From: a virus
Length of the DNA: 28,791 nt
Direction: 5' to 3' (one strand)
UHGV virus genome: UHGV-1403449
This document shows positions 6,850 through 28,791 of this stretch, one piece after another (position 1 is the stretch's first letter; each line of letters begins with the position of its first letter). Both the position numbers and the translations under genes were made by a program. The notes under the pieces are model-generated. The model was not told where the DNA came from and did no database searches. It worked only from the letters and a program-made list of their open reading frames with translations.

Positions 6850-7782
6850 GTAATTTCCGGCAGGCTGGCATACCACCTTCTGATACCAGGCTGCCCCGTT
6901 GTTCTGCCCGCTGGTTTCAATCTGGTATATCTTATAAACCCCGTTTAACGCGGGGTTCGTCACGCTTTCAACAGCGCAAAGCCCACCGATCACCAGCATA
7001 GGATTCAGTTTCGTATCGAATACGATCTGCCCTTTCGAGGATTTGGCTAAGGTACTCGAGTCAGTATCTTTTTTGCCTGCCGGATCCGTATCAGGCTCAT
7101 TGGTTGGCATCTTGGCTTTCTTCCCCCCGTCATCCTGTGCGCTAATCTTCGTTGCCTGAGGCGTATTTAGCAGACCGCTACGCGCATTCACGACTGGAAT
7201 GTTACCCGATGTAACCTCATTAGCCTTGAGGATGTGGACGCGCTCATCTTTGATGAAAAATGACTCGTCGGACGCAAGGGTATCGGTAAGAATTTTACTG
7301 GAGCTACCTACCAGAACCTTCGGCCTGATGAGTGCTTGTTGCTTCGTCACAGAGCCTTTTTTCGTGTTTGGCATATCCTGCAAGACAGAATCGACGACCT
7401 GATCTTTCCCGCGTACCGTGCGCGATGTGAAAGCGTTGATATAGTCGTGGCCACCGTCTTCACATTCCAGGCTGACGATGTGGATCGCCCCCTCACGCTT
7501 TACTGCTCCGCTTTTAACCGAACCCTGAAATACCTGGCGCAGCTTGCCGTCGTAACCAACCTCGAGTCGAACGGGGATATACTTCTCTTCATCTTCGGAC
7601 TTGAGCAATTGCAGACGCGTGGAAGGCTTTAGCCCGTTGATGGACACACTCAGCTTGCCGAGTGACTTCTTGTCCACAGTTTCCAGCGCCTTGAATGACA
7701 CGGTGATCGGTGGCTCGATAATCACTGCTTGATTGCCGATCCCCACCGTCAGCCGATAATCACGGTAAAAAGTATCCATCAC
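6835..7782 (-). CDS. Baseplate hub-like protein (Mu gp44 position)
   Basis: 315 aa ORF in Mu gene-P position between the N-like gene and the gp45-like gene. Confidence 0.45.
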   Translation of the reverse strand: MMDTFYRDYRLTVGIGNQAVIIEPPITVSFKALETVDKKSLGKLSVSINGLKPSTRLQLLKSEDEEKYIPVRLEVGYDGKLRQVFQGSVKSGAVKREGAIHIVSLECEDGGHDYINAFTSRTVRGKDQVVDSVLQDMPNTKKGSVTKQQALIRPKVLVGSSSKILTDTLASDESFFIKDERVHILKANEVTSGNIPVVNARSGLLNTPQATKISAQDDGGKKAKMPTNEPDTDPAGKKDTDSSTLAKSSKGQIVFDTKLNPMLVIGGLCAVESVTNPALNGVYKIYQIETSGQNNGAAWYQKVVCQPAGNYSVVN

Positions 7783-8114
7783 GGCACGTCTCCCCCGCGA
7801 ATATCAATCATCTCTTCCGGCGTGACCAGATACATTTCGATGCGACCACTGGCGAAGTCGTCAGCCCGATATGGGTCAATGCCGGAATTGTCAGCGCAAA
7901 GTAACACAACGTCGAAAGGCCAGTTCTTGTGCCGAAAATGTAGCGTCCCGAGGGACAGCTTCACGCCGTCGATGTAATCACCGTTGTACTCCACGCGCAT
8001 TTTCCACATTTCAACCGTAGGCAGATAACGAATAGTGACCACAGCCTCACCACGGTCAAAAATCAGAACATGCCGCTGGATAGGTTCGTCAGTGATGTTG
8101 GTTATCGGATCCAT
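7779..8114 (-). CDS. Hypothetical tail/baseplate protein
   Basis: 111 aa ORF, 4-nt overlap with the downstream gene, embedded in the tail operon; no motif recognised. Confidence 0.35.
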   Translation of the reverse strand: MDPITNITDEPIQRHVLIFDRGEAVVTIRYLPTVEMWKMRVEYNGDYIDGVKLSLGTLHFRHKNWPFDVVLLCADNSGIDPYRADDFASGRIEMYLVTPEEMIDIRGGDVP

Positions 8115-8126
8115 ACGTTGCTCTCA

Positions 8127-8933
8127 TTAGAATAAAGATTTCGCCGCCCCTTTTAACGAGGTCATGACTGATTTTGACTGGCTGGTCCCGTTACTTTTTT
8201 TAGAATTATCAGCGGGCGTCTGCGCCCCCTTATTAGCAACGCCCGCCGTTTTTGATTTAGCAGCTGCCGAGGGGGATTTGAAGTGCTGCTCAATCGGTGC
8301 GGTAGTCAGTTGCGTGAAGGTGATTTTTGTAAAACTGGCTTCAAACTTAGTTTCCATCGTTTGATTGTCGGTACTGATGGTCAGGCCGCTTAACGCCATA
8401 TTTTCATGGGTGCGATAATCCACCTCCACGGAAATAAGCTGCTTGCCGTAGTACACCCCCTCAATGAAGTCGAGAAATTGCTCGCGTATACCTTTAGCGC
8501 CACCAGTAGACGGGTTGCCCACCAGCCCAAACAGGTCGGCTCCTTTATCAGCCAGGCGTTTTGCCTTTAAGATGGCCTGCTCTGCGCGGTCGGCAATCTC
8601 ATTCATTTTTTGCAACTGCTGCTGCGTCTTTGCGGGGATGTACTCCAGCACCTCACCATACTTCGAATAATCTGGCATCAGGCTAAAAGAAGAGTTTGGT
8701 TTCGCATCGACAAAAATATCGGCAACAACACCGCTGATTTTTATCGTCAGCGGGCCATTGATAATGTCGTCTGACGCGTTACTGCCATCCTCCAGCACGT
8801 CTACAGGAACCTGAGACGGGTATTCAGTAGCATCGCTCACTCGGGCAAACATTGAGAACCCGCCGATCCCTACCTTTTTAACAGTATCTTTGCCAGAAGA
8901 TTGCGCCTGCATGAGGCCGTCTAGAATCCCCAT
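8127..8933 (-). CDS. Putative tail protein (position of Mu gpN DNA-circularisation protein)
   Basis: 268 aa ORF immediately after the tape measure gene; start/stop overlap with the tape measure gene; synteny only. Confidence 0.4.
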   Translation of the reverse strand: MGILDGLMQAQSSGKDTVKKVGIGGFSMFARVSDATEYPSQVPVDVLEDGSNASDDIINGPLTIKISGVVADIFVDAKPNSSFSLMPDYSKYGEVLEYIPAKTQQQLQKMNEIADRAEQAILKAKRLADKGADLFGLVGNPSTGGAKGIREQFLDFIEGVYYGKQLISVEVDYRTHENMALSGLTISTDNQTMETKFEASFTKITFTQLTTAPIEQHFKSPSAAAKSKTAGVANKGAQTPADNSKKSNGTSQSKSVMTSLKGAAKSLF

Positions 8934-10729
8934 TACCGACCTCCTCTGCCACTCAACCGGTTGGCATCCTTCATGTTTTGTTGCAGGCTATCTGCCGCAG
9001 TATTCCCGGCGACAACCGGATCGGATGTGTTGATGTGAATCGTGTTCTGCTGGCTGACGCTTGAATTGCTTGTCACGCCACCACCACCGAGTCCCACCGC
9101 AGCATTCATGCCGTAAGGAATACCACCAGGACTCATGCCGCCGTTACCGCCGCCGGTTACTCCCTGCTGCTGTTCATCCTCACCGACCCCGAAGAATGAC
9201 TTTGTCGCATTCCAGGCATTTGAAGCAGCGTTGCTGATAATATTGCTGATGTATTCCCCCAGCCCAGCAAAGATGTTTTTCGCCCAGTCAATAAAAGCCG
9301 TGAATGGTTTTTTCATCAGTTCGACGCCGTTATCGAAGATTTTTACCACATCCCCCCATGCACCTTCAAAATCGCCAGCGACTAACTTCCATAGTGCTGA
9401 GAACATCAGCTTCGTGTTTTCGATGGCAGTAGTGAATACATCAACGACAAACGCGCCGGCATCGCCAAACACGTATTTAATCGCATCACCAACGACACCA
9501 AATGCACCAGTGATAAACGCTATAAGAGAATCAAAGATATTCTGCGCATCCTTCATCGCACCCTGAAAATCACCCGTAAACGCACCTGTGATGAGATGCC
9601 ACACCATCCTGAACATGGAGGCAATCGCATCAGCAAGCGGTTTAAACACGCCAATAGCGTAGTTTATGAAAGCCATGAGCGACGCTTTCGCCTCTTTCAG
9701 TGCGGGAACAATATCTATTCCCCAGTTATCTTTGAAGAAATCAGCAATAACGCTTTGGCCACCTTCCATAGCCGTCAGCAAATCATCGATAACAAGAACG
9801 ACAGCGATAATGGCGGCAGTGATCAGTACGACAGGAGAGAATATGGTTGCCAGCACCGCTCTAAGTCCTATAGCAGCAATTTTCCAGGCTACAAATCCGG
9901 TGGTAATAAGACCAATAATCGGCAGGAAGCGACGGATCATACCCATAACGGAGAAGATAATTTCCCCAAGATGGGCCAGCCCGTTTTTGATGAGATCCTT
10001 ATTAGCAATGAGAATGTCCGTAAACCCATCCACCAGGTCTTTCAGTACCGGCACAAATCCGACGGCAACCTGAAATTTGATACCATCAAAGCCTTTCCCC
10101 AGCGTTGTCAGAGAATCGTTGTAGGCTGCAAACTGATCGGCCTGGTCTTGCGTGACAACACCAAGCGCCTCGGCCTTGTTCTGCAACGAAGATATTTCTT
10201 CGCCCGTCATGGATAGCAACTGCACCATGGAACGGTCGATACCCATCTTATCCAGAACAGAAAACTTCTCTGCCTGGCTCATGCCGTGCAGTTTGTCGGC
10301 CAGTTCACGAAATATCACATCGGAGTTTTTTACCTGCCCGTTCATATCCTTGAACTGAAGGCCCAGCCTTTCCGCAACGTCTTTCGCCTCCCCCTCACCG
10401 GTGGAAACGAACTCCCCCACTCTTTTTGTCATCTCACCTAGCGAAGCCTGCAACGCATCAACACTTGAGCCATTTACAGACGCCGCGTAACCCAGTGACT
10501 GAACGGTCTCGATCGCCACCCCCGTTTCCCGGGAGAACTGGACCAGCGGATCAATAGACTGACTGACAGACGTCACCCAGCCAGCAACCCCCGCAGCCGA
10601 ACCGGCGATAGCGGCTCCAAGCCCGGCAAGCAAACCAATAGATGCTTTCAGATTTGCATTGAAGGTTTCCTGCGGCGCCAGATTACCGATAAAACCGAAT
10701 TTGGTAATAAGCTCGTTAACTATCGCCAT
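8933..10729 (-). CDS. Tail tape measure protein
   Basis: About 600 aa, largest tail ORF, directly downstream of tube and chaperone genes; long Ala/Gly-rich hydrophobic central segments typical of tape measure proteins. ORF is open to 10795 but the ATG at 10729 (MAIVNELITKFGF) is the probable start. Confidence 0.8.
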   Translation of the reverse strand: MAIVNELITKFGFIGNLAPQETFNANLKASIGLLAGLGAAIAGSAAGVAGWVTSVSQSIDPLVQFSRETGVAIETVQSLGYAASVNGSSVDALQASLGEMTKRVGEFVSTGEGEAKDVAERLGLQFKDMNGQVKNSDVIFRELADKLHGMSQAEKFSVLDKMGIDRSMVQLLSMTGEEISSLQNKAEALGVVTQDQADQFAAYNDSLTTLGKGFDGIKFQVAVGFVPVLKDLVDGFTDILIANKDLIKNGLAHLGEIIFSVMGMIRRFLPIIGLITTGFVAWKIAAIGLRAVLATIFSPVVLITAAIIAVVLVIDDLLTAMEGGQSVIADFFKDNWGIDIVPALKEAKASLMAFINYAIGVFKPLADAIASMFRMVWHLITGAFTGDFQGAMKDAQNIFDSLIAFITGAFGVVGDAIKYVFGDAGAFVVDVFTTAIENTKLMFSALWKLVAGDFEGAWGDVVKIFDNGVELMKKPFTAFIDWAKNIFAGLGEYISNIISNAASNAWNATKSFFGVGEDEQQQGVTGGGNGGMSPGGIPYGMNAAVGLGGGGVTSNSSVSQQNTIHINTSDPVVAGNTAADSLQQNMKDANRLSGRGGR

Positions 10730-19799: not shown

Positions 19800-21217
19800 T
19801 ACATGATGTCCAGTGGGCTGAGTGTTTTTCTCTGATACAAATCGCGTAGTCCCTGTGTCATTGCATCGACAACGTCATCGTTCGCGCCGACAGGGAACGT
19901 GGTAATTTCCTCGACCGTCTCAGTGATCCACGGTGCGATGTCTTTATGGGGAAGGAAAACGTTACCTGCTTCCCATACAGCGGTGATCGCATGCGCCCGG
20001 GCGACTTTGCTGCCGTCCGGTTCAACGGGAACGAGTCCTGCTACGGTGCTTTTCAGTGAATCAATAACCGCCGGGCCGTTGGCTTTATCCTCCACCAGCT
20101 TGCGCAGGCCTTTGGGGTATTCGTCGGCCATGCGTTTAACGGCTTTGAGTGTTGCGGTAAAGCTCATGCGCGCGCGCACCTGGTGAAGCAGATAAGCATT
20201 GGCGCCTTTTTTCCCCCATACCTGCCCGACAACGTAGTCGGTGCCCTCGCTGTCTTTGAAGGTCATATCCCAGCTATGGACGACAATATCGAAGTTGGTC
20301 GGCAAGTCTTTCGGGAGGTAATACTTGATCCACTCGTCTTTGAAGATTGAGCCGCCGGCCTGTTTTGGTGACTGCTGATACATCGCAGACCAGAAGTAAT
20401 CCCCGAGAATGGTTTTGGTTTCGAGCAGCTTTTCTTTCGGGTGCAGTTCAGGCACCAGCGCTTCACCCTGCTCGTTGATTGCAGGGAACGCCAGCACCTT
20501 AGCGCGCGGCGTGATTTCCACCACACGCCCGGATAAATCATCTGTCGCCCAGCGGGTCGCCATGATGATTTCGCCGCTGTTTTTCGACAGACGCGTTTTA
20601 AACGTGGAAACGTACCAGTTCCAGATAGATTTTTTGGTCGTCGGGCTGAGTGCTTCTTTGGCGTTTTTTATCGGGTCATCGATGATACCGAGATCGATTT
20701 TCTTACCTGTTAACGGGCCGCCTACGCCCGCACAGACATACGTTCCCTTATGGTTGGCTATACCGAATTCGTCAGTGTTACGCTTTACGGCCACACCATC
20801 AGCCGGCTTATTTCCCAACCAGGCACCCGGAAATATGTTGCGGTATTCCGGCGTGGACATAATGCGCTGAACATCGGCGTTCATGTCCCCGGCAAGGTCA
20901 GCGGAGTACGACAAAGCGCCCACGCGCATTTCAGGATATTTTCCGAAGAAATACGCTGGCAGGTAACGCGAAACGATATCCGATTTACCATGCTGCGGCG
21001 GCGCACCGAGAATCAGTATCGGGCGCAGCCCGTTCATCATATCCAGCAGGAACTGATCCAGAGCGTCGCAGACCGTCTGAGAGAACTTGCTGGTGATGTA
21101 TTCGGGATTAATGTACTGAATGAAGTCGTGGAGGCTTGCCCGCGCATTGCGTCGTTTGAGTAACTCGGCCGCTGCTTCCTGCTTACTTACCAGCGATAAT
21201 TGCGGCGAGCTGCTCAT
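19799..21217 (-). CDS. Terminase large subunit
   Basis: 472 aa; Walker A-like LILGAPPQHGKS near the N-terminus and acidic nuclease-type motifs in the C-terminal half; follows the small subunit gene. Confidence 0.85.
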   Translation of the reverse strand: MSSSPQLSLVSKQEAAAELLKRRNARASLHDFIQYINPEYITSKFSQTVCDALDQFLLDMMNGLRPILILGAPPQHGKSDIVSRYLPAYFFGKYPEMRVGALSYSADLAGDMNADVQRIMSTPEYRNIFPGAWLGNKPADGVAVKRNTDEFGIANHKGTYVCAGVGGPLTGKKIDLGIIDDPIKNAKEALSPTTKKSIWNWYVSTFKTRLSKNSGEIIMATRWATDDLSGRVVEITPRAKVLAFPAINEQGEALVPELHPKEKLLETKTILGDYFWSAMYQQSPKQAGGSIFKDEWIKYYLPKDLPTNFDIVVHSWDMTFKDSEGTDYVVGQVWGKKGANAYLLHQVRARMSFTATLKAVKRMADEYPKGLRKLVEDKANGPAVIDSLKSTVAGLVPVEPDGSKVARAHAITAVWEAGNVFLPHKDIAPWITETVEEITTFPVGANDDVVDAMTQGLRDLYQRKTLSPLDIM

Positions 21218-22181
21218 CAGTCAGATCCTCCGCGCTTACTGTGTGATTATGCTGTATGGGCTCACCATTCGGGCCGCTTAACTCAGTTTTGGTTTTCAGC
21301 ATGCCGAGGTGTTGTGCGACCATCTTCATAGCCTCATCCTGATTGCGGGTGATCATTTCAAGGCCAAATTTGCCCTCTTTAATCCCGGCAAAAAGGCGGC
21401 GTTCTGCGCCCTTCAAATCTCGTGTATCGTGGAAAACAGGACGGCTCAGACCAACGCCATTGCAGCGGGGGCAATCCGGGTTCGGGTCCAGTGTGCCGTC
21501 GTAGCCGTAGCCGCCCGTATCCTTAGGCTGCATGGCACCTTCCTTCCCCTTAACCTTTTCTTCTGCTTCCTCAAACTCAACTGCATCGCGCCACTGGTAG
21601 TTAAAACCGAGTCCCCAGCAGTAACGGCAACAGCCGCGGTGATGTTCAGTAAGTTGCGTAGCGTCTGCCGTCGCAATGTCCCACCACCATTTCAACACTT
21701 CGTCCTGCGTTATCTTCACTCTTCGCGAGCGTTCGTCCAGCGCGTCGCGGATTGCCTGGCTGACCTTAGCATTTCTTAGCAGGCGCGAGGCGTTAACGTA
21801 AGCCGTATTTCCTTCACCTTTATAGCCAGCTCGCTTGTATGCAGCGGTCCTGTTCAGATCGAGAAGATACTCTTCGACAAACCTGATCTGCATATCGTTA
21901 AGGCCGTAATTGCGCAGGTTGAAGGGTTGCGCACTTTCCTGTATATCGGTCTGCGCATCAGTTGAGGATTGCTCATACTGCGCAGTGGTAGGGGCTTGTT
22001 CAGTCTGCGCATTGCGCACTTTCTTCTGCGCATTTTTTTGCGCAGTTGGCTTTTTGATATAGCGCCGCGCAGATGTGTAATTCAGCCCCCGCGCTTCACA
22101 CCAGTCTTTGGGGGAAATACCGGATTTAGCATGCTCGGCGAGGAACTGGTGTTGCAGTGATCCCCAGTCCGGTTTTGCCAT
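21183..22181 (-). CDS. Terminase small subunit
   Basis: 332 aa ORF immediately upstream of and overlapping the large terminase gene; contains a terminase-small-subunit-like segment (FVEEYLLDLNRTAAYKRAGYKGEG...). Confidence 0.6.
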   Translation of the reverse strand: MAKPDWGSLQHQFLAEHAKSGISPKDWCEARGLNYTSARRYIKKPTAQKNAQKKVRNAQTEQAPTTAQYEQSSTDAQTDIQESAQPFNLRNYGLNDMQIRFVEEYLLDLNRTAAYKRAGYKGEGNTAYVNASRLLRNAKVSQAIRDALDERSRRVKITQDEVLKWWWDIATADATQLTEHHRGCCRYCWGLGFNYQWRDAVEFEEAEEKVKGKEGAMQPKDTGGYGYDGTLDPNPDCPRCNGVGLSRPVFHDTRDLKGAERRLFAGIKEGKFGLEMITRNQDEAMKMVAQHLGMLKTKTELSGPNGEPIQHNHTVSAEDLTDEQLAAIIAGK

Positions 22182-22268: not shown

Positions 22269-22829
22269 ATGAAATACTCACAGCAAGAAAAACTACAGAT
22301 CATGATGCTCAGTGATATTCACCGAGCATTAGAAATTGAAAACTCATTTGATCCTGACCTCATTGACGAAGCAGTGAGCACGGATAACTACTGGGCTTTA
22401 TCCTGGGAATACCCAGGCCTTCAAGATGAAGAAGAGGAGACCCCCTGGGAAGTCCAGCTTTTCGTTGATACCTATGATATGTATGACATTCTCCAATACA
22501 CATACGAACGATTCAGTGCGGAAGACAAAGCAGAGGTTGCCAAATCTATTCGTAATTTCGATGAGAAATTATCACTCACATTCCCCGGATTTGACGGTAA
22601 CAACGAATCAAAGTTTCTTTTGATTGGTAGTTTATTGAAACGAATGGGACGGTTTAGCGGCAAAGACGATCTCACCCGGAACTCTCACATGCCCTCTGTT
22701 GCAATTTACCAACGTATGCTTGAAGTTTTCCTTCCTGCCAGAGCTAAGAATTGGGTTCACAATGTGGGCATTACTAAACATGATTTTATCGATACACTCA
22801 ACGCGAGAGTGCATCCAGAAAATCGTTAA
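22269..22829 (+). CDS. Moron gene: putative YfbU-like (UPF0304) protein
   Basis: 186 aa ORF on the opposite strand between the spanin and terS genes, with its own promoter-like and terminator-like elements; C-terminal ...YQRMLEVFLP... and overall pattern resemble E. coli YfbU as recalled from memory (unverified). Confidence 0.5.
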   Translation: MKYSQQEKLQIMMLSDIHRALEIENSFDPDLIDEAVSTDNYWALSWEYPGLQDEEEETPWEVQLFVDTYDMYDILQYTYERFSAEDKAEVAKSIRNFDEKLSLTFPGFDGNNESKFLLIGSLLKRMGRFSGKDDLTRNSHMPSVAIYQRMLEVFLPARAKNWVHNVGITKHDFIDTLNARVHPENR

Positions 22830-22834
22830 ACGTT

Positions 22835-22856
22835 AATGCCCGCAAATGCGGGCATT
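22835..22856. terminator. Hairpin at the convergent junction of the plus-strand moron and the Rz gene (possible bidirectional terminator)
   Basis: AATGCCCGC-AAAT-GCGGGCATT perfect 9-bp stem with a 4-nt loop; the flanking T-run is weak. Confidence 0.45.
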
Positions 22857-23382
22857 ATTCATCATGGCGCCTTATTACTTTGTCGTAGGTGCGCTCACAG
22901 GTATTTCCGGCGACATAACGCTCATCAGCCTCTTTTGCGAATTTTCCCGCCAGATCGTCAGCTTCGCTGAGCAACTGGGCGAGCAATATTCCGGCCTCGG
23001 CTTTTGCCTGGCTTGTTGCTGCAATTGCGGAAATTCTGCCTGTTTCACTTGTTGCGAGCTGCCGTTGTATTTCGGCGAGCTGCTGTTGCAACCCACTGCG
23101 AGCACGCTTAGCAGCGTTAGCATCAGCCTGTACTTTTGCCAGTTCTTCATCGGCTTTCTCTCGTTCTTCATCTACGGCCCGCTGGCGGCGCTGCTCTTCT
23201 GCTCTTTCGGTTACTTCACGCTGCAATGTAGTGGTCGCATCAGTAAGGTCACGTTGTGCCCACTGCAATTTCCAGGATGAGTCCGCCTCCTGATACCCGC
23301 GTGAATAACACCAGTACGCGACCGCGCATAACAAAAAAGCCACCAGCAGTATTTCTGCCAGCGGCTTCCAGTAAGCCCTCAC
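22855..23382 (-). CDS. Rz: i-spanin (Rz-like)
   Basis: N-terminal transmembrane segment (LAEILLVAFLLCAVAYW) followed by a long charged coiled-coil (EEQRRQRAVDEEREKADEELAKVQ...); probable GTG start at 23382 overlapping the endolysin stop (GTGA); ORF is open upstream to 23445. Confidence 0.75.
   Translation of the reverse strand: MRAYWKPLAEILLVAFLLCAVAYWCYSRGYQEADSSWKLQWAQRDLTDATTTLQREVTERAEEQRRQRAVDEEREKADEELAKVQADANAAKRARSGLQQQLAEIQRQLATSETGRISAIAATSQAKAEAGILLAQLLSEADDLAGKFAKEADERYVAGNTCERTYDKVIRRHDE
22875..23150 (-). CDS. Rz1: o-spanin (Rz1-like lipoprotein) embedded in another frame within Rz
   Basis: ORF entirely inside the Rz coding region in a different frame; signal peptide with lipobox (LLSVLAVGC), Pro-rich mature part; probable start at the second Met (MKNWQKY...). 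Confidence 0.7.
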   Translation of the reverse strand: MKNWQKYRLMLTLLSVLAVGCNSSSPKYNGSSQQVKQAEFPQLQQQARQKPRPEYCSPSCSAKLTIWRENSQKRLMSVMSPEIPVSAPTTK

Positions 23383-23921
23383 TGGTCTATCCCCCAGCAC
23401 GTTAACGCGCTTTCCTGGTCTCGTCGCTCTACCTGACCATAGCACCCATTTTTCTGGCCTTTGGTCAGACGACAGTCGCGGCCACCATCTTTAATCCACC
23501 AGCGAATAGCTTCACATGCGCCTTTACGGTCGCCAGCATTAATTCGCTTATAGAACGTAGACGGGAAACATTTCCCGGGGCCGATGTTATAGGGGCAGAA
23601 AGATGCGATCCCGGCTTTCTGTGGTTCGGTCAGTGGTACTTTGATATTTCGGTCAACCCACGCCAGCGCCTTGTCGCGTTCAATGGCATTCACCTGGGCA
23701 CATTTCTCAGCTGACAACTTCATACCCTGAACTACCGGCTTGCCATCAACCATCGTGGCGCCACGGCAAATCGTCCAGAGCCCACCGCCGTCTCGATACG
23801 CCTGCTCGCTATTACCCTCCTTCTCATCCAGAAACTGATCGAGAATAACTGGCGCGGATGCCCCGGCAAGAATCAAACCAACGACCGCTGCGCTCAGCTT
23901 ATTCCTCAGCTTTGGTGGCAT
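23379..23921 (-). CDS. SAR endolysin (phage lysozyme, R21-like)
   Basis: N-terminus MPPKLRNKLSAAVVGLILAGASAPVIL is a Gly/Ala-rich signal-anchor-release segment; followed by a lysozyme catalytic region (DEKEGNS...GGLWTICRG). Confidence 0.85.
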   Translation of the reverse strand: MPPKLRNKLSAAVVGLILAGASAPVILDQFLDEKEGNSEQAYRDGGGLWTICRGATMVDGKPVVQGMKLSAEKCAQVNAIERDKALAWVDRNIKVPLTEPQKAGIASFCPYNIGPGKCFPSTFYKRINAGDRKGACEAIRWWIKDGGRDCRLTKGQKNGCYGQVERRDQESALTCWGIDQ

Positions 23922-24177
23922 ACCCATTGCGCCGATCCTCCCGTTCTTTCCAGCGGAAATACCAGTTCACTGCACAGGTGATTACCGTACATGCGATACC
24001 GACAATAATTGCCCAGTCGCTCAGGCTTAACCCTGCAATTCTGTCGGCCAACATCCAGGACACCTCTTTTGCTGTTTTAGCTGTTTCGGCATATGCCTTC
24101 GCTGATACACCGCAGCCGGTCAGCGTGGTTCCTGTTCCATATGAAAGTCTGCTGTAAATGGTGCTCATTCTGGTCAT
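23899..24177 (-). CDS. Class II holin (pinholin, S21-like) with dual-start motif
   Basis: Probable start MTRMSTIY (Met-Thr-Arg-Met dual start giving antiholin/holin); two hydrophobic segments and a charged C-terminus (YFRWKEREDRRN) resembling phage 21 S; ORF is open to 24234. Confidence 0.7.
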   Translation of the reverse strand: MTRMSTIYSRLSYGTGTTLTGCGVSAKAYAETAKTAKEVSWMLADRIAGLSLSDWAIIVGIACTVITCAVNWYFRWKEREDRRNGYATKAEE

Positions 24178-24456
24178 AGCCTCACCTCCGATTTTTCGGA
24201 TGGCGCTGTGTGTGATGATAAGGTCAGGCTTCACGGGCTGGATTTATCAACAAAGCACGTAGTAATTGATTCCCGTGAGCCTGAAATGAAAAAGGCCACC
24301 AGTTGGCAGCCTCGAAGTGAGTTAACTTGTTTATATAGGTGGAGCGAGAGGTCCTTCTAAAACTTCCGCTTCACCGTTATGGCAAATGTCATCACCTATG
24401 GTCAGACGCCTGTGGTTGTGATGGCCGTTTAAGATTGAGCCAGCACTGTAGTTGCA

Positions 24457-25248
24457 TCAATTACCCAATGGCTTATGTAGTTTAAATGGGTTAAGTGATT
24501 CTTCATTTTTCAGGCTTATCTTTAAATTCACAGCAATCAGTGAATGATCGTCAGTTGGTCCAGCGCGCTGTATCCGCTTAAAAAGATTGGTTGAAAAGTT
24601 AGTAGCATTCTTCAATGTATTGGGAGAAAAACGCGGGCGGCGTTCCCAGAAGTGATGGGCTCCATCGGACATCAGAAAAAGAGAAACAACACCGTCATGG
24701 TCCATCAAATCTGACAGGGGTAACGAAATATGCTGAAATTTTATTGGCAGGACTTTAGAAATAGCTGCAGTAAGCATGTTCTTTCCTGGTAAGTCTTCCA
24801 ATTCCCTTTTCGTATATAACCCATCGTCGAGCAACTCTTGATGCTGTGAGTGATCTTTCGTTAGTAGTTTTAATTTGTTATCAATTTTTACATACACCCG
24901 AGTATCGCCTACATGGATTACATTAAGTAACTCACCATGTACAACACAGTAGGATAATGTTGTTGCGGCCTTGCGCTTCTCTGAATCGAACTGAGATAGT
25001 TCAGATATTTTGTCTTTTGCACCACTAAGTATCGCATCAGGATCAGAACTGGCTTTCAGTTTATGAGTTGCGACATAGTCTACTGCAGCTTGCGCTGCTT
25101 CTTTAGCACCAGCATAAGACCCGACACCATCAGCAATAGCAAAAATGAAGCCATCATCACATTGTTGCGGGAGTAGTAACGCATCTTGGTTTTCACGACC
25201 ATGATCTTTGGGGCATGAAAATGCACCACAGCTCAACAACTCAATCAT
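24457..25248 (-). CDS. PP2C-family Ser/Thr protein phosphatase
   Basis: 263 aa; metal-binding motifs of PP2C phosphatases (IADGVGS, GDTRVY, MSDGAHHF); start overlaps the kinase stop by 4 nt (ATGA). Confidence 0.75.
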   Translation of the reverse strand: MIELLSCGAFSCPKDHGRENQDALLLPQQCDDGFIFAIADGVGSYAGAKEAAQAAVDYVATHKLKASSDPDAILSGAKDKISELSQFDSEKRKAATTLSYCVVHGELLNVIHVGDTRVYVKIDNKLKLLTKDHSQHQELLDDGLYTKRELEDLPGKNMLTAAISKVLPIKFQHISLPLSDLMDHDGVVSLFLMSDGAHHFWERRPRFSPNTLKNATNFSTNLFKRIQRAGPTDDHSLIAVNLKISLKNEESLNPFKLHKPLGN

Positions 25249-26027
25249 TTGCCTCTCCTTGCTGCAACAATATCATCAAGAATGTCTATCATCTCAGTGA
25301 CAGAATCGTACCTTGAACGAGGCGTAAATGCCGCTGATTTATCGATTAATGTCGTTATACCGTCAATATGAGATAGATTCATTTCACTAGTAATAACACC
25401 TAGCGCGTAAATATCTGATTTCTGTGTATATACTCCGCGTTTAGCCTCGTCAGACATGTACTTAGCAGTGCCAATACCCATTTTTTTGTTTTGAAGTACA
25501 CCTGACAAAAAATCAGATTGGGCTTTCGAATCCATACTTTTGATTAGGCCGAAATCGGAAATTTTGTAACAGCCTCCTTCAAACTTGAGGATATTCTCAG
25601 GTTTCAGATCCCTGTGAAGCAACCCAGCGTCATGGATATACTTAACGCCTTCAAACACCATCTTCAGGGCTAACAGCTTTTCATCATCAGAAAGAACGCC
25701 CGCTTTTAGTTCGCTTCTTAGGTCTGTTTCTGCCAACTCCATCACAAACCAAGGGTTTTCTATGCTTAAATGATGTATGCAAATTCTTACAACATGATCA
25801 TGATTGCACTTGGCTTGGTAGTCGACTTCACGCTTAAACCGACGCTTCCAGTCATCTACACTAAAATATTCATTTAATAACGCAGGATTAACTGAAAGAA
25901 CTTTCCTTGCATACTCACCACAAAGATGGCTATCGGTGTTATATACCTCAACCTTTTCCACACGACCAAAAGCACCAAAACCTAGATCTCTCAATGGTTT
26001 TATAAGGTAATTACCCCTGGGTTCCAT
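25245..26027 (-). CDS. Hanks-type (eukaryotic-like) Ser/Thr protein kinase, catalytic domain only
   Basis: 260 aa; Gly-rich loop LGFGAFGRV, catalytic loop HRDLKPENIL, DFG motif (ISDFGL), activation-segment TAKYMSDE and subdomain IX DIYALGV. Confidence 0.85.
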   Translation of the reverse strand: MEPRGNYLIKPLRDLGFGAFGRVEKVEVYNTDSHLCGEYARKVLSVNPALLNEYFSVDDWKRRFKREVDYQAKCNHDHVVRICIHHLSIENPWFVMELAETDLRSELKAGVLSDDEKLLALKMVFEGVKYIHDAGLLHRDLKPENILKFEGGCYKISDFGLIKSMDSKAQSDFLSGVLQNKKMGIGTAKYMSDEAKRGVYTQKSDIYALGVITSEMNLSHIDGITTLIDKSAAFTPRSRYDSVTEMIDILDDIVAARRGK

Positions 26028-26146
26028 AGCTTACTCACATAAAATTCTCATGAGCAAAATCTACACCCAAAAGAAAAACCACACCATATCAATAGGTTTA
26101 ATTTTCCAAAGAAATCTATCTACACCCTGCAGCAGCTTAAATACAC

Positions 26147-26188
26147 CTCAAAAAAGAAAACCCGCTCATCGGCGGGTTATTAATTTTT
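26147..26188. terminator. Intrinsic terminator-like hairpin with A/T runs on both sides (strong in the minus-strand direction)
   Basis: AACCCGC-TCATCG-GCGGGTT 7-bp stem (26158-26177); read on the minus strand it is followed by TTCTTTTTTG; about 120 bp upstream of the kinase start. Confidence 0.5.
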
Positions 26189-26412
26189 ATCTATCGCTGC
26201 GGGTGTAACTTCGCGAGCATAGCTGAATTCAAGCAATCCCCGCGCAACTTTGCAACCGGAATCGATCAGCTTTTTTATCAAATACATCACACATTGGTAA
26301 GTACAGCATGGCTTCTGCCATCTGCAACCAGACATCAATTCGACTTTCGCAGGTACGTAGGCACCATTCCGGGTGACGAGTATTCAGTTCTCTTGCCGCC
26401 CATCTTCACGAA

Positions 26413-26440
26413 GCCCAGCCATGTGCTGGGTTTTCTTTTT
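26413..26440 (+). terminator. Plus-strand intrinsic terminator-like element
   Basis: CCCAGC-CATGT-GCTGGG hairpin followed by TTTTCTTTTTT on the plus strand. Confidence 0.45.
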
Positions 26441-26514
26441 TGAAGCGCACTAATCACCGTAGCCACAGATATTCAGCAATGAGTTGGTTGGGTCTGGTTC
26501 TTGGTGGTAATGCG

Positions 26515-26541
26515 CTTTAAAAAAGCCAGCGGCGATGCTGG
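26515..26541 (-). terminator. Minus-strand intrinsic terminator-like element (candidate tR-prime-type terminator)
   Basis: GCCAGC-GGCGAT-GCTGGC hairpin; on the minus strand it is followed by TTTTTTAAAG. Confidence 0.45.
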
Positions 26542-26996
26542 CAAGATGAGGGTAGTGCGTTGAGCTTTCGCTCTTATGGTCCTGGTAGGTATTTGAGATA
26601 GTGGTGTCTGGTGGCTAATTCCAGATTACGCCTAACATCACGTCCTCTGACTTTACAATTCACCACAACGGAAAGAGCACTCACGTCTCGCGTGTCGGCA
26701 CGAATACCCACCCAGAGAGTCGAACTCTGAAAATGCCCTTACCTGTTGTGCAGATATAAAAAAGCCCGGAGCCATTATGCAGATACTAACTATTGTCTGC
26801 GAACGGGGCCGGGCTATTGAATGACAACGCCATCATCCAGATGGCGGCCTGATTACTCAGGTCTTGGAGAACCTCTCAGCTCTCTACGGTTGGAGTACCA
26901 GACGATGCGCCGAAGATACCAACTAGGCGGTTCAGTGGTGAGAGCCGCCTCTTTTGCCTCACCGCCAACGAAGTCAGTAACCCATCGTTAGAATCG

Positions 26997-27025
26997 AGAT
27001 TAAACAAAAATCGCCACTTTGTAAA
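26997..27025 (-). promoter_or_regulatory. Candidate late promoter (PR-prime-like) just downstream of the Q gene
   Basis: Minus-strand TTTACA, 17-bp spacer, TAATCT, about 45-70 bp downstream of the Q stop codon; weak -10 match. Confidence 0.3.
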
Positions 27026-27067
27026 GTGTAGTTTTCTAGATAAATCCTATTTCATAGAAAACATTCA

Positions 27068-27832
27068 CTATCGCGTGACTTTGTTCAACATCTGGTTTGC
27101 GTACTCTTCCTGCTTGATGCACTCACCTACCAGACTTTCGAAAAAATCCTTGTAAGACCTGCGCCACGTGGTTTCAGGTATATCCATCACCGTTACGCAG
27201 ATGTATTTACGGACGCTATCAGGTAGCAATCTGGCATAACCACGCCCATTGCAGCGCGTACAGGTTTTATATGCAGGAACGCCGCGCTGTAGAATAGTTT
27301 TCTCTTTGTCTAATACTGTTCCTTTGCCATTGCACTGGCATGCGTTGGTCAGAGCACCCTTCCCTTTGCATTTGTGGCAAAGCACCTTAACCATCTCTCT
27401 TTTTTCGCTAAGGTGTGGCTGTCCGATATGCTTCATCGTCATTACTTCAGCTTCGACAAACTTATTTCCATGGCAGCAGTCGCACGTTCTGGTGCTGGCC
27501 GCACTCCGGGAGTAATCAGCAAAGGCGAAAGTTGCGAGAACTTGCATTACCTTTGGCTTAACATCACTCTCAAGCTTGCGTAAGGCAGCAACCTTATCGC
27601 AGTGCTCAATTGCATATTTTGTCAGCAAATCAATCGCTCGCTCGCGATCGTAATCACTGATATCCATCTTTCCTAGGAATGCACTGAACCCGAGAGCAGC
27701 ACGGCTCTGTGTCATTCCGATCGCCGCCATAATGTCAGTGCCGGTTAATGAGTCAGATGCTGTCGCGCGTGGAGCGTCGCTAATCATCGTTGACTTCGCG
27801 AAGTGGTATTTCACTGTGTTTTCAAGGTTCAT
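27068..27832 (-). CDS. Late-gene antitermination protein Q (lambdoid Q family with Cys-rich zinc-binding region)
   Basis: Cys-rich motifs CDCCHGNKF, CHKCKGKG, CQCNGKG, CTRCNGRG; located between NinG and the late leader/lysis region. ORF is open to 27928; the start at MNLENTVKY (27832) is tentative. Confidence 0.65.
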   Translation of the reverse strand: MNLENTVKYHFAKSTMISDAPRATASDSLTGTDIMAAIGMTQSRAALGFSAFLGKMDISDYDRERAIDLLTKYAIEHCDKVAALRKLESDVKPKVMQVLATFAFADYSRSAASTRTCDCCHGNKFVEAEVMTMKHIGQPHLSEKREMVKVLCHKCKGKGALTNACQCNGKGTVLDKEKTILQRGVPAYKTCTRCNGRGYARLLPDSVRKYICVTVMDIPETTWRRSYKDFFESLVGECIKQEEYANQMLNKVTR

Positions 27833-27965
27833 AGCGCTTCTCCAGCATAAGTTTTCACGTAATTCTTCAGTATCCGGTAGTCCGTTAGCACAGAGCCGGG
27901 AAAGTGGTATAAGCGCAATCGTTGCCAACGAACGCGGAGGTGATCGGCAAAATAGGATTCAAATG

Positions 27966-28574
27966 TCATGCGGCCTCCCTGCTCTTAATTAATCCACGAC
28001 GAAGTGCGCTGTAGCGCTTCCTGATAGCTTCGAGTTCTTCTATTGTGTATCGGTGCGGAACGTTATTGTTTTCGAGCGCCTCGACGCGCTCAGCCCCTAT
28101 TTTCTCTATAAGGCCAAGGCGGTACTGCTGCTGATTGCCCGACAACTGAACGTTACAGTGGTGGCACTGTTTACTGATATTGTCCTCGTGATAGCGAAGA
28201 TGTGATGCCTTACCGCGTGAGCGGTAGTGACCTGCTTCCCACTGGACGGTTTCGAACGTCCCGCAACTGATGCATGGCAAATAATGGTCACGCTCGCGAA
28301 TATAGTCATTGACTACACGCTGCGTTAAATCTTCCCAGTGCTTCAGCGGCTTAAACGCAGCTTTACGCTGGCGCCAAGCGGCTCGCTCTTTTTTCTCAGT
28401 GGCGCGCTTTTTGGCAGACTCCTTGCGTTGTGCCGCCTCCCTGACCTTTCTGGTCTGCTCTTTTCCAACCGCGCTGGCGCACTCATAACCGCAGACAGTC
28501 TGCGTATCGCGAACAGGGTGGAACCACTGGCGGCATTCTTTGTTGGCGCACTTACGGCGCGGTAGCTTAGCCAT
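27966..28574 (-). CDS. ninG: NinG (Rap) recombination-promoting nuclease-like protein
   Basis: Translation from MAKLPRRKCANKECRQWFHP... through ...DLPCISCG...QWEAGHYRSRG... matches lambda NinG along the full length as recalled; ORF is open to 28586. Confidence 0.85.
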   Translation of the reverse strand: MAKLPRRKCANKECRQWFHPVRDTQTVCGYECASAVGKEQTRKVREAAQRKESAKKRATEKKERAAWRQRKAAFKPLKHWEDLTQRVVNDYIRERDHYLPCISCGTFETVQWEAGHYRSRGKASHLRYHEDNISKQCHHCNVQLSGNQQQYRLGLIEKIGAERVEALENNNVPHRYTIEELEAIRKRYSALRRGLIKSREAA

Positions 28575-28576
28575 GC

Positions 28577-28791
28577 TCAACCCCACGCCCTGTTTTGCCA
28601 GACCTTACTCGGGCGCGGCGCTTTCTCGCTTTCCGGCAGCTGAACGCTGACGGTCCAGGTGATGTTGTCGCGGTTCAGGCTGCGTTCTACTGTGGCGCCA
28701 CGACGGCGATAACTCGCCACCAGCTCGTTTGCCTGTTCGGTTGTGCATTCGTGATGGTGGAACCAGGAATATTTCATCGCCATCACCCCGC
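28577..28791 (-). CDS. Hypothetical Nin-region protein, possibly truncated at the right edge of the window
   Basis: ORF MMAMKYSWFHHHECTTEQANELVASYRRRGATVERS...; the first codon in the track is GTG and the frame remains open to the window end; stop abuts the ninG start. Confidence 0.4.
   Translation of the reverse strand, partial: GVMAMKYSWFHHHECTTEQANELVASYRRRGATVERSLNRDNITWTVSVQLPESEKAPRPSKVWQNRAWG

Follow-up and report, generated by a model that had tools for sequence, protein, structure and literature searches.

In the virus genome UHGV-1403449, analysed here as one stretch of 28,791 nucleotides (hereafter, the window), the interval between the gene of the late antiterminator Q and the lysis genes is occupied by two small genes, which encode a predicted Hanks-type Ser/Thr kinase and a predicted protein phosphatase of the PP2C family. 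The stop codon of the kinase gene and the start codon of the phosphatase gene overlap in an ATGA at 25248-25245, and this overlap implies translational coupling. A first-pass annotation made from the sequence alone had already described the overlap; it is found as described, with the clarification that the two genes are encoded by the minus strand.

Kinase, phosphatase and the insert that carries them

The kinase is composed of 260 amino acids (aa) and scores 112.6 bits against the Pfam profile Pkinase (PF00069; cut-off 31.7 bits), and the kinase domain is the only one found by Pfam, with neither a sensor nor any other domain in addition. Besides a profile score above the gathering threshold, the residues by which Hanks kinases are recognized are all in place. 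Across 25 aligned kinases, taken from relatives at 35-90% identity, the glycine loop (G18/G21), the VAIK lysine (K42), the alpha-C glutamate (E67), the HRD motif (H138-R139-D140) together with K142 and N145, the DFG motif (D158-F159-G160), the aspartate of subdomain IX (D205) and the arginine of subdomain XI (R239) are invariant. The AlphaFold (AF2) model, with a predicted local distance difference test score (pLDDT) of 88.6, resembles solved kinase domains at a template modelling (TM) score of ~0.7; its sole low-confidence stretch comprises residues 174-184 of the activation loop. Position 175 of this loop is Ser/Thr in 25/25 kinases and position 171 is so in 22/25, and the conserved Ser171 and Ser/Thr175 are likely autophosphorylation sites. 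The best matches in sequence and fold are StkP, Stk1 and PknB, and the PHROGs class of the protein is "serine-threonine kinase". Judged from its conserved residues and its model, it is predicted to be a catalytically intact Hanks Ser/Thr kinase that consists of the catalytic domain only.

The phosphatase (263 aa) matches the Pfam families PP2C_2 (5.7e-15) and PP2C (9.7e-5), both above their cut-offs, and reaches 55.9 bits with the PP2C/PPM profile (PF13672/PF00481; cut-off 24). In an alignment of 32 phosphatases, the metal-binding residues D22, D40, D115, D195, D233 and D234 are invariant, which includes the metal-binding aspartates of motifs 1, 2, 8 and 11 that, together with the gathering score, define the PP2C/PPM family; a family-specific WExRPRFS motif is invariant as well. 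A C-terminal tail of 18 aa is peculiar to the E. coli/Citrobacter variant. The AlphaFold model (pLDDT 89.3) finds its best fold matches in PstP, Stp1 and tPphA (E ~1e-14), and sequence and model together predict a catalytically intact phosphatase. The clade to which it belongs is small and discrete: a search of 1.84 billion representatives yielded only 22 clusters at E ≤ 1e-30, compared with 14,829 PP2C-like proteins at E ≤ 1e-3. Its PHROGs class is "unknown function"; the protein aligns to positions 273-526 of the 565-position profile phrog_5650, which probably contains fused or mis-joined kinase-PP2C proteins.

Both assignments agree with the first-pass annotation, in which the kinase had been recognized by its full motif set without a sensor domain and the phosphatase by its metal-binding motifs, and the profile searches with Pkinase and PP2C that had been suggested there match both proteins above the cut-offs.

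The pair is carried by a low-GC insert of the type known as a moron. The guanine-plus-cytosine (GC) content is 0.39-0.43 over 24200-26400, compared with 0.52-0.55 in the flanking phage genes, and the homology of the flanks to other phages stops on either side of the pair. On the Q side, Salmonella phages SI5, SI8 and SF6 are homologous over Q and the region downstream of it as far as window position 26389; SI5 is 96% identical over 26595-26389, and the homology stops ~140 bp before the SI5 holin. On the holin side, mEp237 and HK225 are homologous up to 24297-24311, with HK225 reaching 24311. The limits of the insert given in Table 1 are taken from these two end points. In mEp237, an unrelated gene of 213 aa fills the same slot between Q and holin. 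The cassette is therefore a backbone-flanked insert of deviant composition that is not present in related phages, as expected of a moron. The earlier placement of the pair in the moron slot between Q and the lysis genes, bounded by terminator-like hairpins with Q upstream and the holin downstream, is borne out by these homology end points, the low GC content and the three hairpins listed in Table 1.

Cassettes in other phage backbones (L006-L009) share 73-79% DNA identity and 84-90% protein identity with that of the window, over a span from 26106 to ~24514 only, which corresponds to the two genes plus a leader of ~80 nt. The Q-proximal end of the insert (26107-26388, ~280 bp) is common neither to the Salmonella-phage backbone nor to these cassettes. 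It holds the hairpin at 26178..26159 and only short open reading frames (ORFs; 52 and 43 aa) and may be the remnant of an earlier moron.

Table 1. Features of the window around the kinase-PP2C cassette, in minus-strand order
Feature	Position	Strand	Evidence or remark
NinG	28586..27966	minus	
Late antiterminator Q	27928..27068	minus	Pfam Antiterm PF03589, 8e-44
Terminator-like hairpin	26542..26525	minus	GCCAGCATCGCCGCTGGC then TTTTTT; in the backbone block downstream of Q that is 96% identical to SI5
Low-GC insert (moron)	~24312..26385		~2.07 kb; from the ends of flank homology and GC content
GC-rich hairpin with T-run	26178..26159	minus	AACCCGCCGATGAGCGGGTT TTCTTTTTTG; 130 nt upstream of the start codon of the kinase gene
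5' leader	26028..26106	minus	~80-95 nt; moves with close cassettes; homology with L006-L009 starts at 26106-26105
Kinase gene	26027..25245	minus	Pfam Pkinase, 2.9e-32
PP2C gene	25248..24457	minus	PP2C_2, 5.7e-15
Terminator-like hairpin	24313..24292	minus	between PP2C and holin, at the backbone junction
Holin	24234..23899	minus	Phage_holin_2_3, 2.9e-11; Phage_holin_2_1, 3.6e-7; P21/HP1 pinholin families
Endolysin	23927..23379	minus	
Rz	23445..22855	minus	

Of the flanking backbone genes, Q shares 78-83% DNA identity with that of Salmonella phages SI5 and ES18, and the holin, which is the first backbone gene past the insert, is 91-93% identical at the DNA level to its counterparts in mEp237 and HK225; the terminase and morphogenesis genes are situated beyond Rz in the minus-strand gene order. 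The spacer between Q and the kinase gene (~1 kb) is non-coding, and scanning the entire window, this spacer included, for tRNAs and Rfam families revealed no known RNA gene. The lysis cassette (22855-24234, minus strand) resembles the pinholin/signal-anchor-release (SAR) endolysin type. The probable start of the holin is an internal MTRM dual-start motif and not the GTG with which the listed ORF opens, the N-terminus of the endolysin is hydrophobic and Gly/Ala-rich, and an Rz1-like lipoprotein ORF with a LAVGC lipobox (22875..23171) is nested within Rz. An ORF with a YfbU domain (22269-22829, plus strand; 186 aa; Pfam 5.5e-12; phrog_6084, function unknown; GC content ~0.40-0.43), for which no PADLOC match was obtained, is flanked by Rz and the terminase-side gene at 21183-22181 and runs opposite to the late genes. 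This ORF looks like a second moron, occupying the Rz-terminase slot that is used by relatives of the kinase-PP2C cassette elsewhere.

Pairing, inheritance and distribution of the cassette

Kinase and phosphatase constitute an obligate, co-inherited unit. In 155/155 loci, the PP2C gene comes next after the kinase gene and shares its strand, and IMG/VR loci were invariably paired when the search was seeded with the kinase (61/61) as well as when it was seeded with the phosphatase (78/78). An annotated set was composed of the phage records phiES15 and Flotzy plus Pfam-annotated contigs of homologues at 37-77% identity from Kosakonia, Citrobacter, Pantoea, Enterobacter, Serratia, Xanthomonas, Aeromonas, Pectobacterium, Vibrio and Actinobacillus; here, the kinase gene is directly followed by a PF13672 gene in 16/16 loci. 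Of these 16 annotated rows, which contain two pairs of near-identical loci, 14 have the same ATGA overlap of four bases; among another 38 distinct loci, it recurs in 27.

The two proteins have also evolved in parallel. Pairwise identities of kinases and phosphatases co-vary across 53 distinct loci (Mantel r = 0.90, with 0/999 permutations as high), and the mean divergence is equal, with 44.5% and 44.3% for the two proteins. Purifying selection is strong, with a ratio of non-synonymous to synonymous substitution rates (dN/dS) of ~0.04 for both genes; in comparison with the closest relatives, dN amounts to 0.06-0.12 and dS is saturated. Inheritance of two small, adjacent and co-transcribed genes as a unit is also what the logic of type II and type VII toxin-antitoxin (TA) systems requires. 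A decaying hitch-hiker was considered as an explanation of the insert and rejected, given the low dN/dS, the invariance of all catalytic residues and frameshifts in only 2 of the 61 kinase-seeded loci. Decayed copies were seen in two loci only: both genes of L070 (1-2528) are broken into fragments, and in L079 (4481-5169) the phosphatase is in two pieces, with the kinase seemingly intact.

The family extends over E. coli, Citrobacter, Pectobacterium, Cronobacter, Klebsiella, Serratia, Yersinia, Vibrio, Aeromonas, Pasteurellaceae and Xanthomonas. Its cassette is a self-contained, horizontally mobile two-gene moron of temperate phages and other mobile elements in Gammaproteobacteria. Among 50,697 phage records searched by tblastn at 1e-5, only the lambdoid phages phiES15 and Flotzy carry the pair, and no virulent phage does. 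A megablast search with positions 24300-26200 gave no match in the same phage records and, in 5,426 complete RefSeq E. coli genomes, only a 44-nt match to a hairpin. The exact proteins of the window are found on 155-175 contigs, the source names of which are E. coli, Citrobacter farmeri/freundii and Pectobacterium. The element is rare, or else it is confined to lineages known only from draft assemblies.

The genomic contexts of the pair, classified from Pfam-annotated neighbours together with a tblastn panel, are compiled in Table 2. In the clade of context C (~7150-9470), the kinase is ~43% identical to that of the window, and the spacer in L044 is without a hairpin. The record of phage 933W (L187, 2105-4783) displays its kinase gene stk in the order pM-cI-..-stk-tM, as in context C. 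The rexAB genes of phage lambda have the same arrangement downstream of cI. From contexts C, D, E and G it would follow that the unit works independently of late transcription and is expressed in lysogens or uninfected cells of those lineages.

Table 2. Genomic contexts of the kinase-PP2C pair
Context	Arrangement	Loci
A	Q, pair, (methyltransferase) holin	window, phiES15, L012, L053-L063, L067, L068
B	Rz/Rz1, pair, small terminase	Flotzy, L014-L019, L027, L032-L043, L074, L075, L085, L088
C	S24-type cI repressor, pair 95-125 nt downstream on the same strand, RecT beyond	L044, L046, L047, L050, L081
D	antisense between nin (DUF968, BOF) and replication genes (DUF977, DUF1627, DnaT)	L065, L076-L079, L083
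E	DUF927-primase element, next to a T5orf172/MUG113 protein	L064, L066 (8001-13586)
F	end of an inovirus prophage (Rep_trans, DUF1293, Zot)	Vibrio vulnificus L026 (327-8537)
G	chromosomal islet without phage genes, between SymE and a NACHT NTPase	Xanthomonas
G	chromosomal islet, followed by DUF4760	Aeromonas
G	chromosomal islets, after dusB-fis in Pectobacterium	Pectobacterium; V. splendidus
G	chromosomal islet, between rpoC and a MazE/PIN pair	Actinobacillus

Several of these surroundings merit comment. The T5orf172 protein in context E matches the PADLOC model of the validated defence system PD-Lambda-1 at 4.7e-85, and the DUF927 primase-helicase adjoining the pair in L064 and L066 may mark a satellite-like element with a defence hot spot. 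The position of the V. vulnificus pair next to an inovirus echoes the occurrence of the three-gene kinase-kinase-phosphatase system KKP on Pf filamentous prophages. In Aeromonas (L021/L022, 8590-9237), a DUF4760 gene encoding 215 aa lies 7 nt past the PP2C gene on the same strand; the arrangement may represent a three-gene variant of the module, and the DUF4760 protein gave no PADLOC match.

Expression and possible function

The region 23800-27200 contains 10 terminator-like hairpins, as opposed to 2.3 +/- 1.7 in shuffled sequences. The hairpin at 26542..26525 is a candidate for tR'. The one at 26178..26159, which is terminator-like on both strands, would be expected to shield the cassette from read-through unless transcription is antiterminated; a comparable hairpin with a T-run is found 5' of the kinase gene in L001/L030, L008, L051, L052 and L053. 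Within the leader, the boxes TTGAyATGG and GGTGTAnAT, the latter ~45 nt before the ATG, are conserved in cassettes of other phage backbones, and the 130-nt leader of the window (26028-26160, minus strand) contains four copies of GGTGTA or GGTGTG. The conserved boxes may be the binding site of a regulator and the leader a promoter or operator. A -35/-10 pair made up of the two boxes was rejected, as they are 23 nt apart and thus too distant, and so was a conserved RNA structure of the leader (RNAalifold -2.55 kcal/mol, with unconvincing covariation).

As regards a promoter and terminator of its own, as expected of a moron, the cassette is flanked by hairpins and has a conserved leader, and a sigma-70-like promoter was not found. 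No other coding sequence precedes the pair in the Q-antiterminated late transcript, and, as far as can be read from the sequence, Q-dependent late transcription would be its sole demonstrable expression route in the window; expression in a lysogen of this phage is possible.

With a confidence that falls a little short of even, we lean towards interpreting the pair as a toxin-antidote (type VII-like) module that acts through phosphorylation and serves exclusion or abortive infection, i.e., a two-gene analogue of KKP. KKP (PfpC-PfkB-PfkA; Guo et al. 2024, PMC11341870) is a TA-like defence module carried by Pf6 as well as by P2-, P4- and Mu-like prophages, in which the two kinases are jointly toxic and the phosphatase serves as the antidote; its phosphatase PfpC is inhibited by Gp59 of phage T4 (PMC11341870). 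In addition, the kinase Stk of prophage 933W is activated upon infection by phage HK97 and excludes it (PMC3681748). The toxin-antidote interpretation is advanced because the unit is paired, autonomous and mobile, occupies slots of exclusion genes, has one defence neighbour, and finds precedents in KKP, 933W Stk and the TerY-P systems.

According to the mechanism we propose, the kinase would autophosphorylate on its flexible activation loop (Ser171, Ser/Thr175) and, when unrestrained, would be the effector that phosphorylates host and/or phage proteins and thereby blocks phage or cell growth. The co-translated PP2C would continuously dephosphorylate the kinase and its substrates, and an infecting phage would upset this balance by means of either a PP2C inhibitor, comparable to T4 Gp59 acting on PfpC, or a kinase activator, comparable to HK97 acting on 933W Stk. 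In the window, the pair would be made upon prophage induction from the Q-antiterminated transcript, with or without a promoter of its own. Tentatively, the pair may be described as an uncatalogued minimal two-gene anti-phage system, in which a bare Hanks kinase is held in check by a co-translated PP2C and is triggered by phage, and which spreads as a moron over different accessory slots of temperate phages (Q-holin, Rz-terminase, downstream of cI and antisense in the early region).

Several points weigh against this interpretation. For the kinase-PP2C family, we infer toxicity, phosphorylation and protection alike. The PADLOC matches of the window kinase (mad6, PD-T4-6 and Stk2) are to the generic kinase domain only and provide no evidence of defence. 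Ten neighbour proteins, nine of them from other loci and the tenth being the YfbU-like ORF of the window, yielded a single PADLOC match, namely the PD-Lambda-1-like protein of L064, and the association of the pair with defence islands is anecdotal. Classical TA systems commonly have orphan antitoxins, whereas no orphan PP2C was seen. The cassette is preceded by a strong terminator, and a consensus scan of the minus strand from this terminator to the ATG revealed no sigma-70-like promoter; promoter-like sites in 53 distinct upstream regions number 13, versus 10.7 +/- 2.9 in dinucleotide shuffles, so that they are not enriched family-wide. Finally, in the subfamily of the window (at least 50% identity), every prophage copy resides in a late operon in co-orientation, either directly before the holin in the Q-holin slot or after Rz/Rz1 in the Rz-terminase slot.

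The points concerning transcription and position speak at the same time for a module of the late lytic cycle, which would be transcribed only from pR' under Q antitermination and would act in the lytic growth of the phage itself, for instance by altering transcription, translation or nuclease activities of the host in the manner of T7 gp0.7, or else by setting the timing of lysis or shielding the lysing cell from superinfection, with PP2C limiting the extent or duration of phosphorylation. It is supported by the terminator 130 nt upstream of the kinase gene and by a scan in which no canonical promoter was found; on balance, we regard it as unlikely. The pair also occurs downstream of cI, in antisense orientation within early regions, inside a primase element, next to an inovirus and in phage-free islets, and the pre-holin and post-Rz slots are general moron hot spots, as exemplified by gp56 of mEp237 and by the YfbU-like ORF of the window. 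Furthermore, the cassette brings along its own conserved leader of ~80-95 nt, and virulent phages among the 50,697 records are devoid of the pair, which is present in phiES15 and Flotzy only. The first-pass annotation had offered a prophage-encoded anti-phage or toxin-antidote module and a late host-takeover module side by side. The context evidence favours the former in our reading of the sequences, because the unit appears autonomous and is located behind cI, antisense in early operons, by a PD-Lambda-1-like gene and in non-phage islets.

A role in lysogenic conversion or prophage regulation seems similarly improbable. Here, the module would determine how far host regulators, for instance nucleoid-associated silencers, are phosphorylated, without a direct anti-phage role, and the outcome would be an altered host physiology or an altered induction of its own or co-resident prophages. 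KKP has exactly such a second function, as it controls MvaU and thereby Pf induction (PMC11341870). The location of the pair by an inovirus prophage in V. vulnificus, its presence in strains with several prophages, and the islets in Pectobacterium, V. splendidus and Aeromonas that have no known defence genes next to them are in line with such a role. However, no target can be named, the kinase is without a sensor or targeting domain, unlike PfkA with its cold-shock domain (CSD) and PfkB with its FHA domain, and strict co-translation leaves little scope for the two genes to be expressed differentially, which is what drives the switch in KKP. Very improbable, lastly, is a counter-defence function, by which PP2C would erase the marks of defence kinases (Stk2-, KKP- or PD-T4-6-like) or the kinase would inactivate a host defence protein, to the benefit of phage replication: while the pair would come first in late transcription and kinase-based defences exist in enterobacteria (PMC11341870, PMC9519451), obligate pairing, phage-free islets and copies downstream of cI are ill-suited to a function needed in infection only, and no similarity to known anti-defence proteins was found.

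Phosphorylation-based bacterial immunity has been characterised in very few cases (Stk2, 933W Stk, KKP and TerY-P-like modules). If the toxin-antidote interpretation is true, the cassette would be the simplest known module of this kind, and the KKP principle would require neither two kinases nor FHA and CSD targeting domains. A two-gene, sensor-free version would be the cleanest system for asking how a phage trips the kinase-phosphatase balance, which host or phage proteins' phosphorylation stops an infection, and whether the response is reversible. The family is small and sharply delimited, and with phiES15 and Flotzy two cultured phages make the pair directly testable, while its distribution over late-operon and cI-operon slots offers a natural experiment on whether the position of a moron dictates the timing of its action. 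If the pair is instead a module for late takeover or lysis timing, it would represent a new kind of lambdoid late function.

Relation to known kinase and phosphatase systems

The first-pass annotation knew of no described defence system with exactly this minimal architecture, a statement that holds for PADLOC 2.0, NCBIfam, PHROGs and the full-text literature. No paper describing this two-gene family was found in the latter, a kinase-PP2C pair is not mentioned in the DefensePredictor and Vassallo papers, and the genes are merely named in GenBank records. The two closest systems that combine PP2C with Hanks kinases, KKP (PMC11341870) and the TerY-P triad (PMC10542128), had been left out of that annotation.

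KKP and the cassette have in common that they are prophage-borne, combine a PF13672 PP2C with PF00069 Hanks kinases in one operon, occur in Gram-negative bacteria and move horizontally between prophage types; by analogy, the logic of a kinase as the toxin and PP2C as the antidote is plausibly shared. They differ in that KKP comprises three genes in the order PP2C-kinase-kinase, whereas the cassette comprises two in the order kinase-PP2C at all loci, and in that PfkA carries a C-terminal CSD and PfkB an FHA domain, the two acting jointly, whereas the window kinase is single and without an extra domain. Moreover, KKP is catalogued in P2, P4, Mu and Pf prophages, and the kinase-PP2C pair is found mainly in lambdoid slots. 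No KKP-type prophage kinase was recovered when the window kinase was compared with the phage collection at E ≤ 1e-5. Membership in KKP was rejected, as neither the gene triplet nor FHA or CSD kinases are present.

The TerY-P triad, according to the account given in PMC10542128 with reference to Anantharaman 2012 and Gao 2020, consists of a TerY-like vWA protein, PP2C and a Ser/Thr kinase; as related there, TerY-P-like modules of PP2C, Ser/Thr kinase and vWA defend against phage, and OB-fold variants have been validated as stand-alone systems. As in the cassette, PP2C and Hanks kinase genes lie side by side. However, the TerY-P kinase possesses a C-terminal zinc ribbon or OB fold, neither of which is present in the window kinase, and no vWA/TerY gene is adjacent to the pair in the window or in the 16 Pfam-annotated loci. 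On the grounds that both the vWA neighbour and the fused kinase domain are missing, this affiliation was rejected, too.

Among single kinases, 933W Stk resembles the window kinase in being a eukaryote-like kinase encoded by a lambdoid prophage, and its position in the cI operon is also used by one clade of the pair. It differs in its size (348 aa), in having no partner phosphatase and in residing in the immunity region rather than the late region. The two kinases are 20% identical over 220 aa (43 bits), which corresponds to generic fold similarity, and 933W was not recovered by tblastn at 1e-5; hence, membership in this family was rejected.

When PADLOC models were run on the pair, the kinase matches were limited to the generic kinase domain. 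They comprise PD-T4-6 (PDLC04042; 3.6e-31, kinase residues 15-213, profile positions 17-202 of 292), Stk2 (3.6e-22, positions 153-357 of 500) and mad6 (1.7e-36, positions 53-249 of 659); for the phosphatase, only a marginal match to PDC-M21C (1e-4) was obtained. PD-T4-6 models also match housekeeping PASTA kinases (PMC11514479), and an automated annotator would probably label the window kinase PD-T4-6. PD-T4-6 and Stk2 are single-gene systems without a phosphatase, in contrast to the window kinase with its obligately coupled PP2C. Stk2 was rejected, since its architecture of ~500 aa is matched only in part, and so was the MADS kinase MAD6, with an NCBIfam score of 59 bits versus a cut-off of 460 and no MADS neighbours.

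In the housekeeping pairs PknB-PstP, Stk1-Stp1 and PrkC-PrpC, a cognate phosphatase adjoins the kinase, as it does in the cassette. YegI-PphC of E. coli is another housekeeping pair of a Hanks kinase and a PP2C. These kinases differ from that of the window in their transmembrane and PASTA or other sensor domains; furthermore, the pairs belong to the core chromosome, and usually the phosphatase gene comes first. The scores of the cassette proteins are far under the NCBIfam equivalog cut-offs (PknB_PASTA_kin 100 versus 450; Stp1 87 versus 230).

What is new in the cassette is the obligate pairing (155/155 loci), the co-inheritance, the purifying selection, the discrete PP2C clade and the hopping between accessory slots. 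What is already known is the kind to which it belongs, namely prophage-borne kinase/PP2C modules, and the cassette is most likely an unstudied minimal relative of the phosphorylation-based anti-phage modules.

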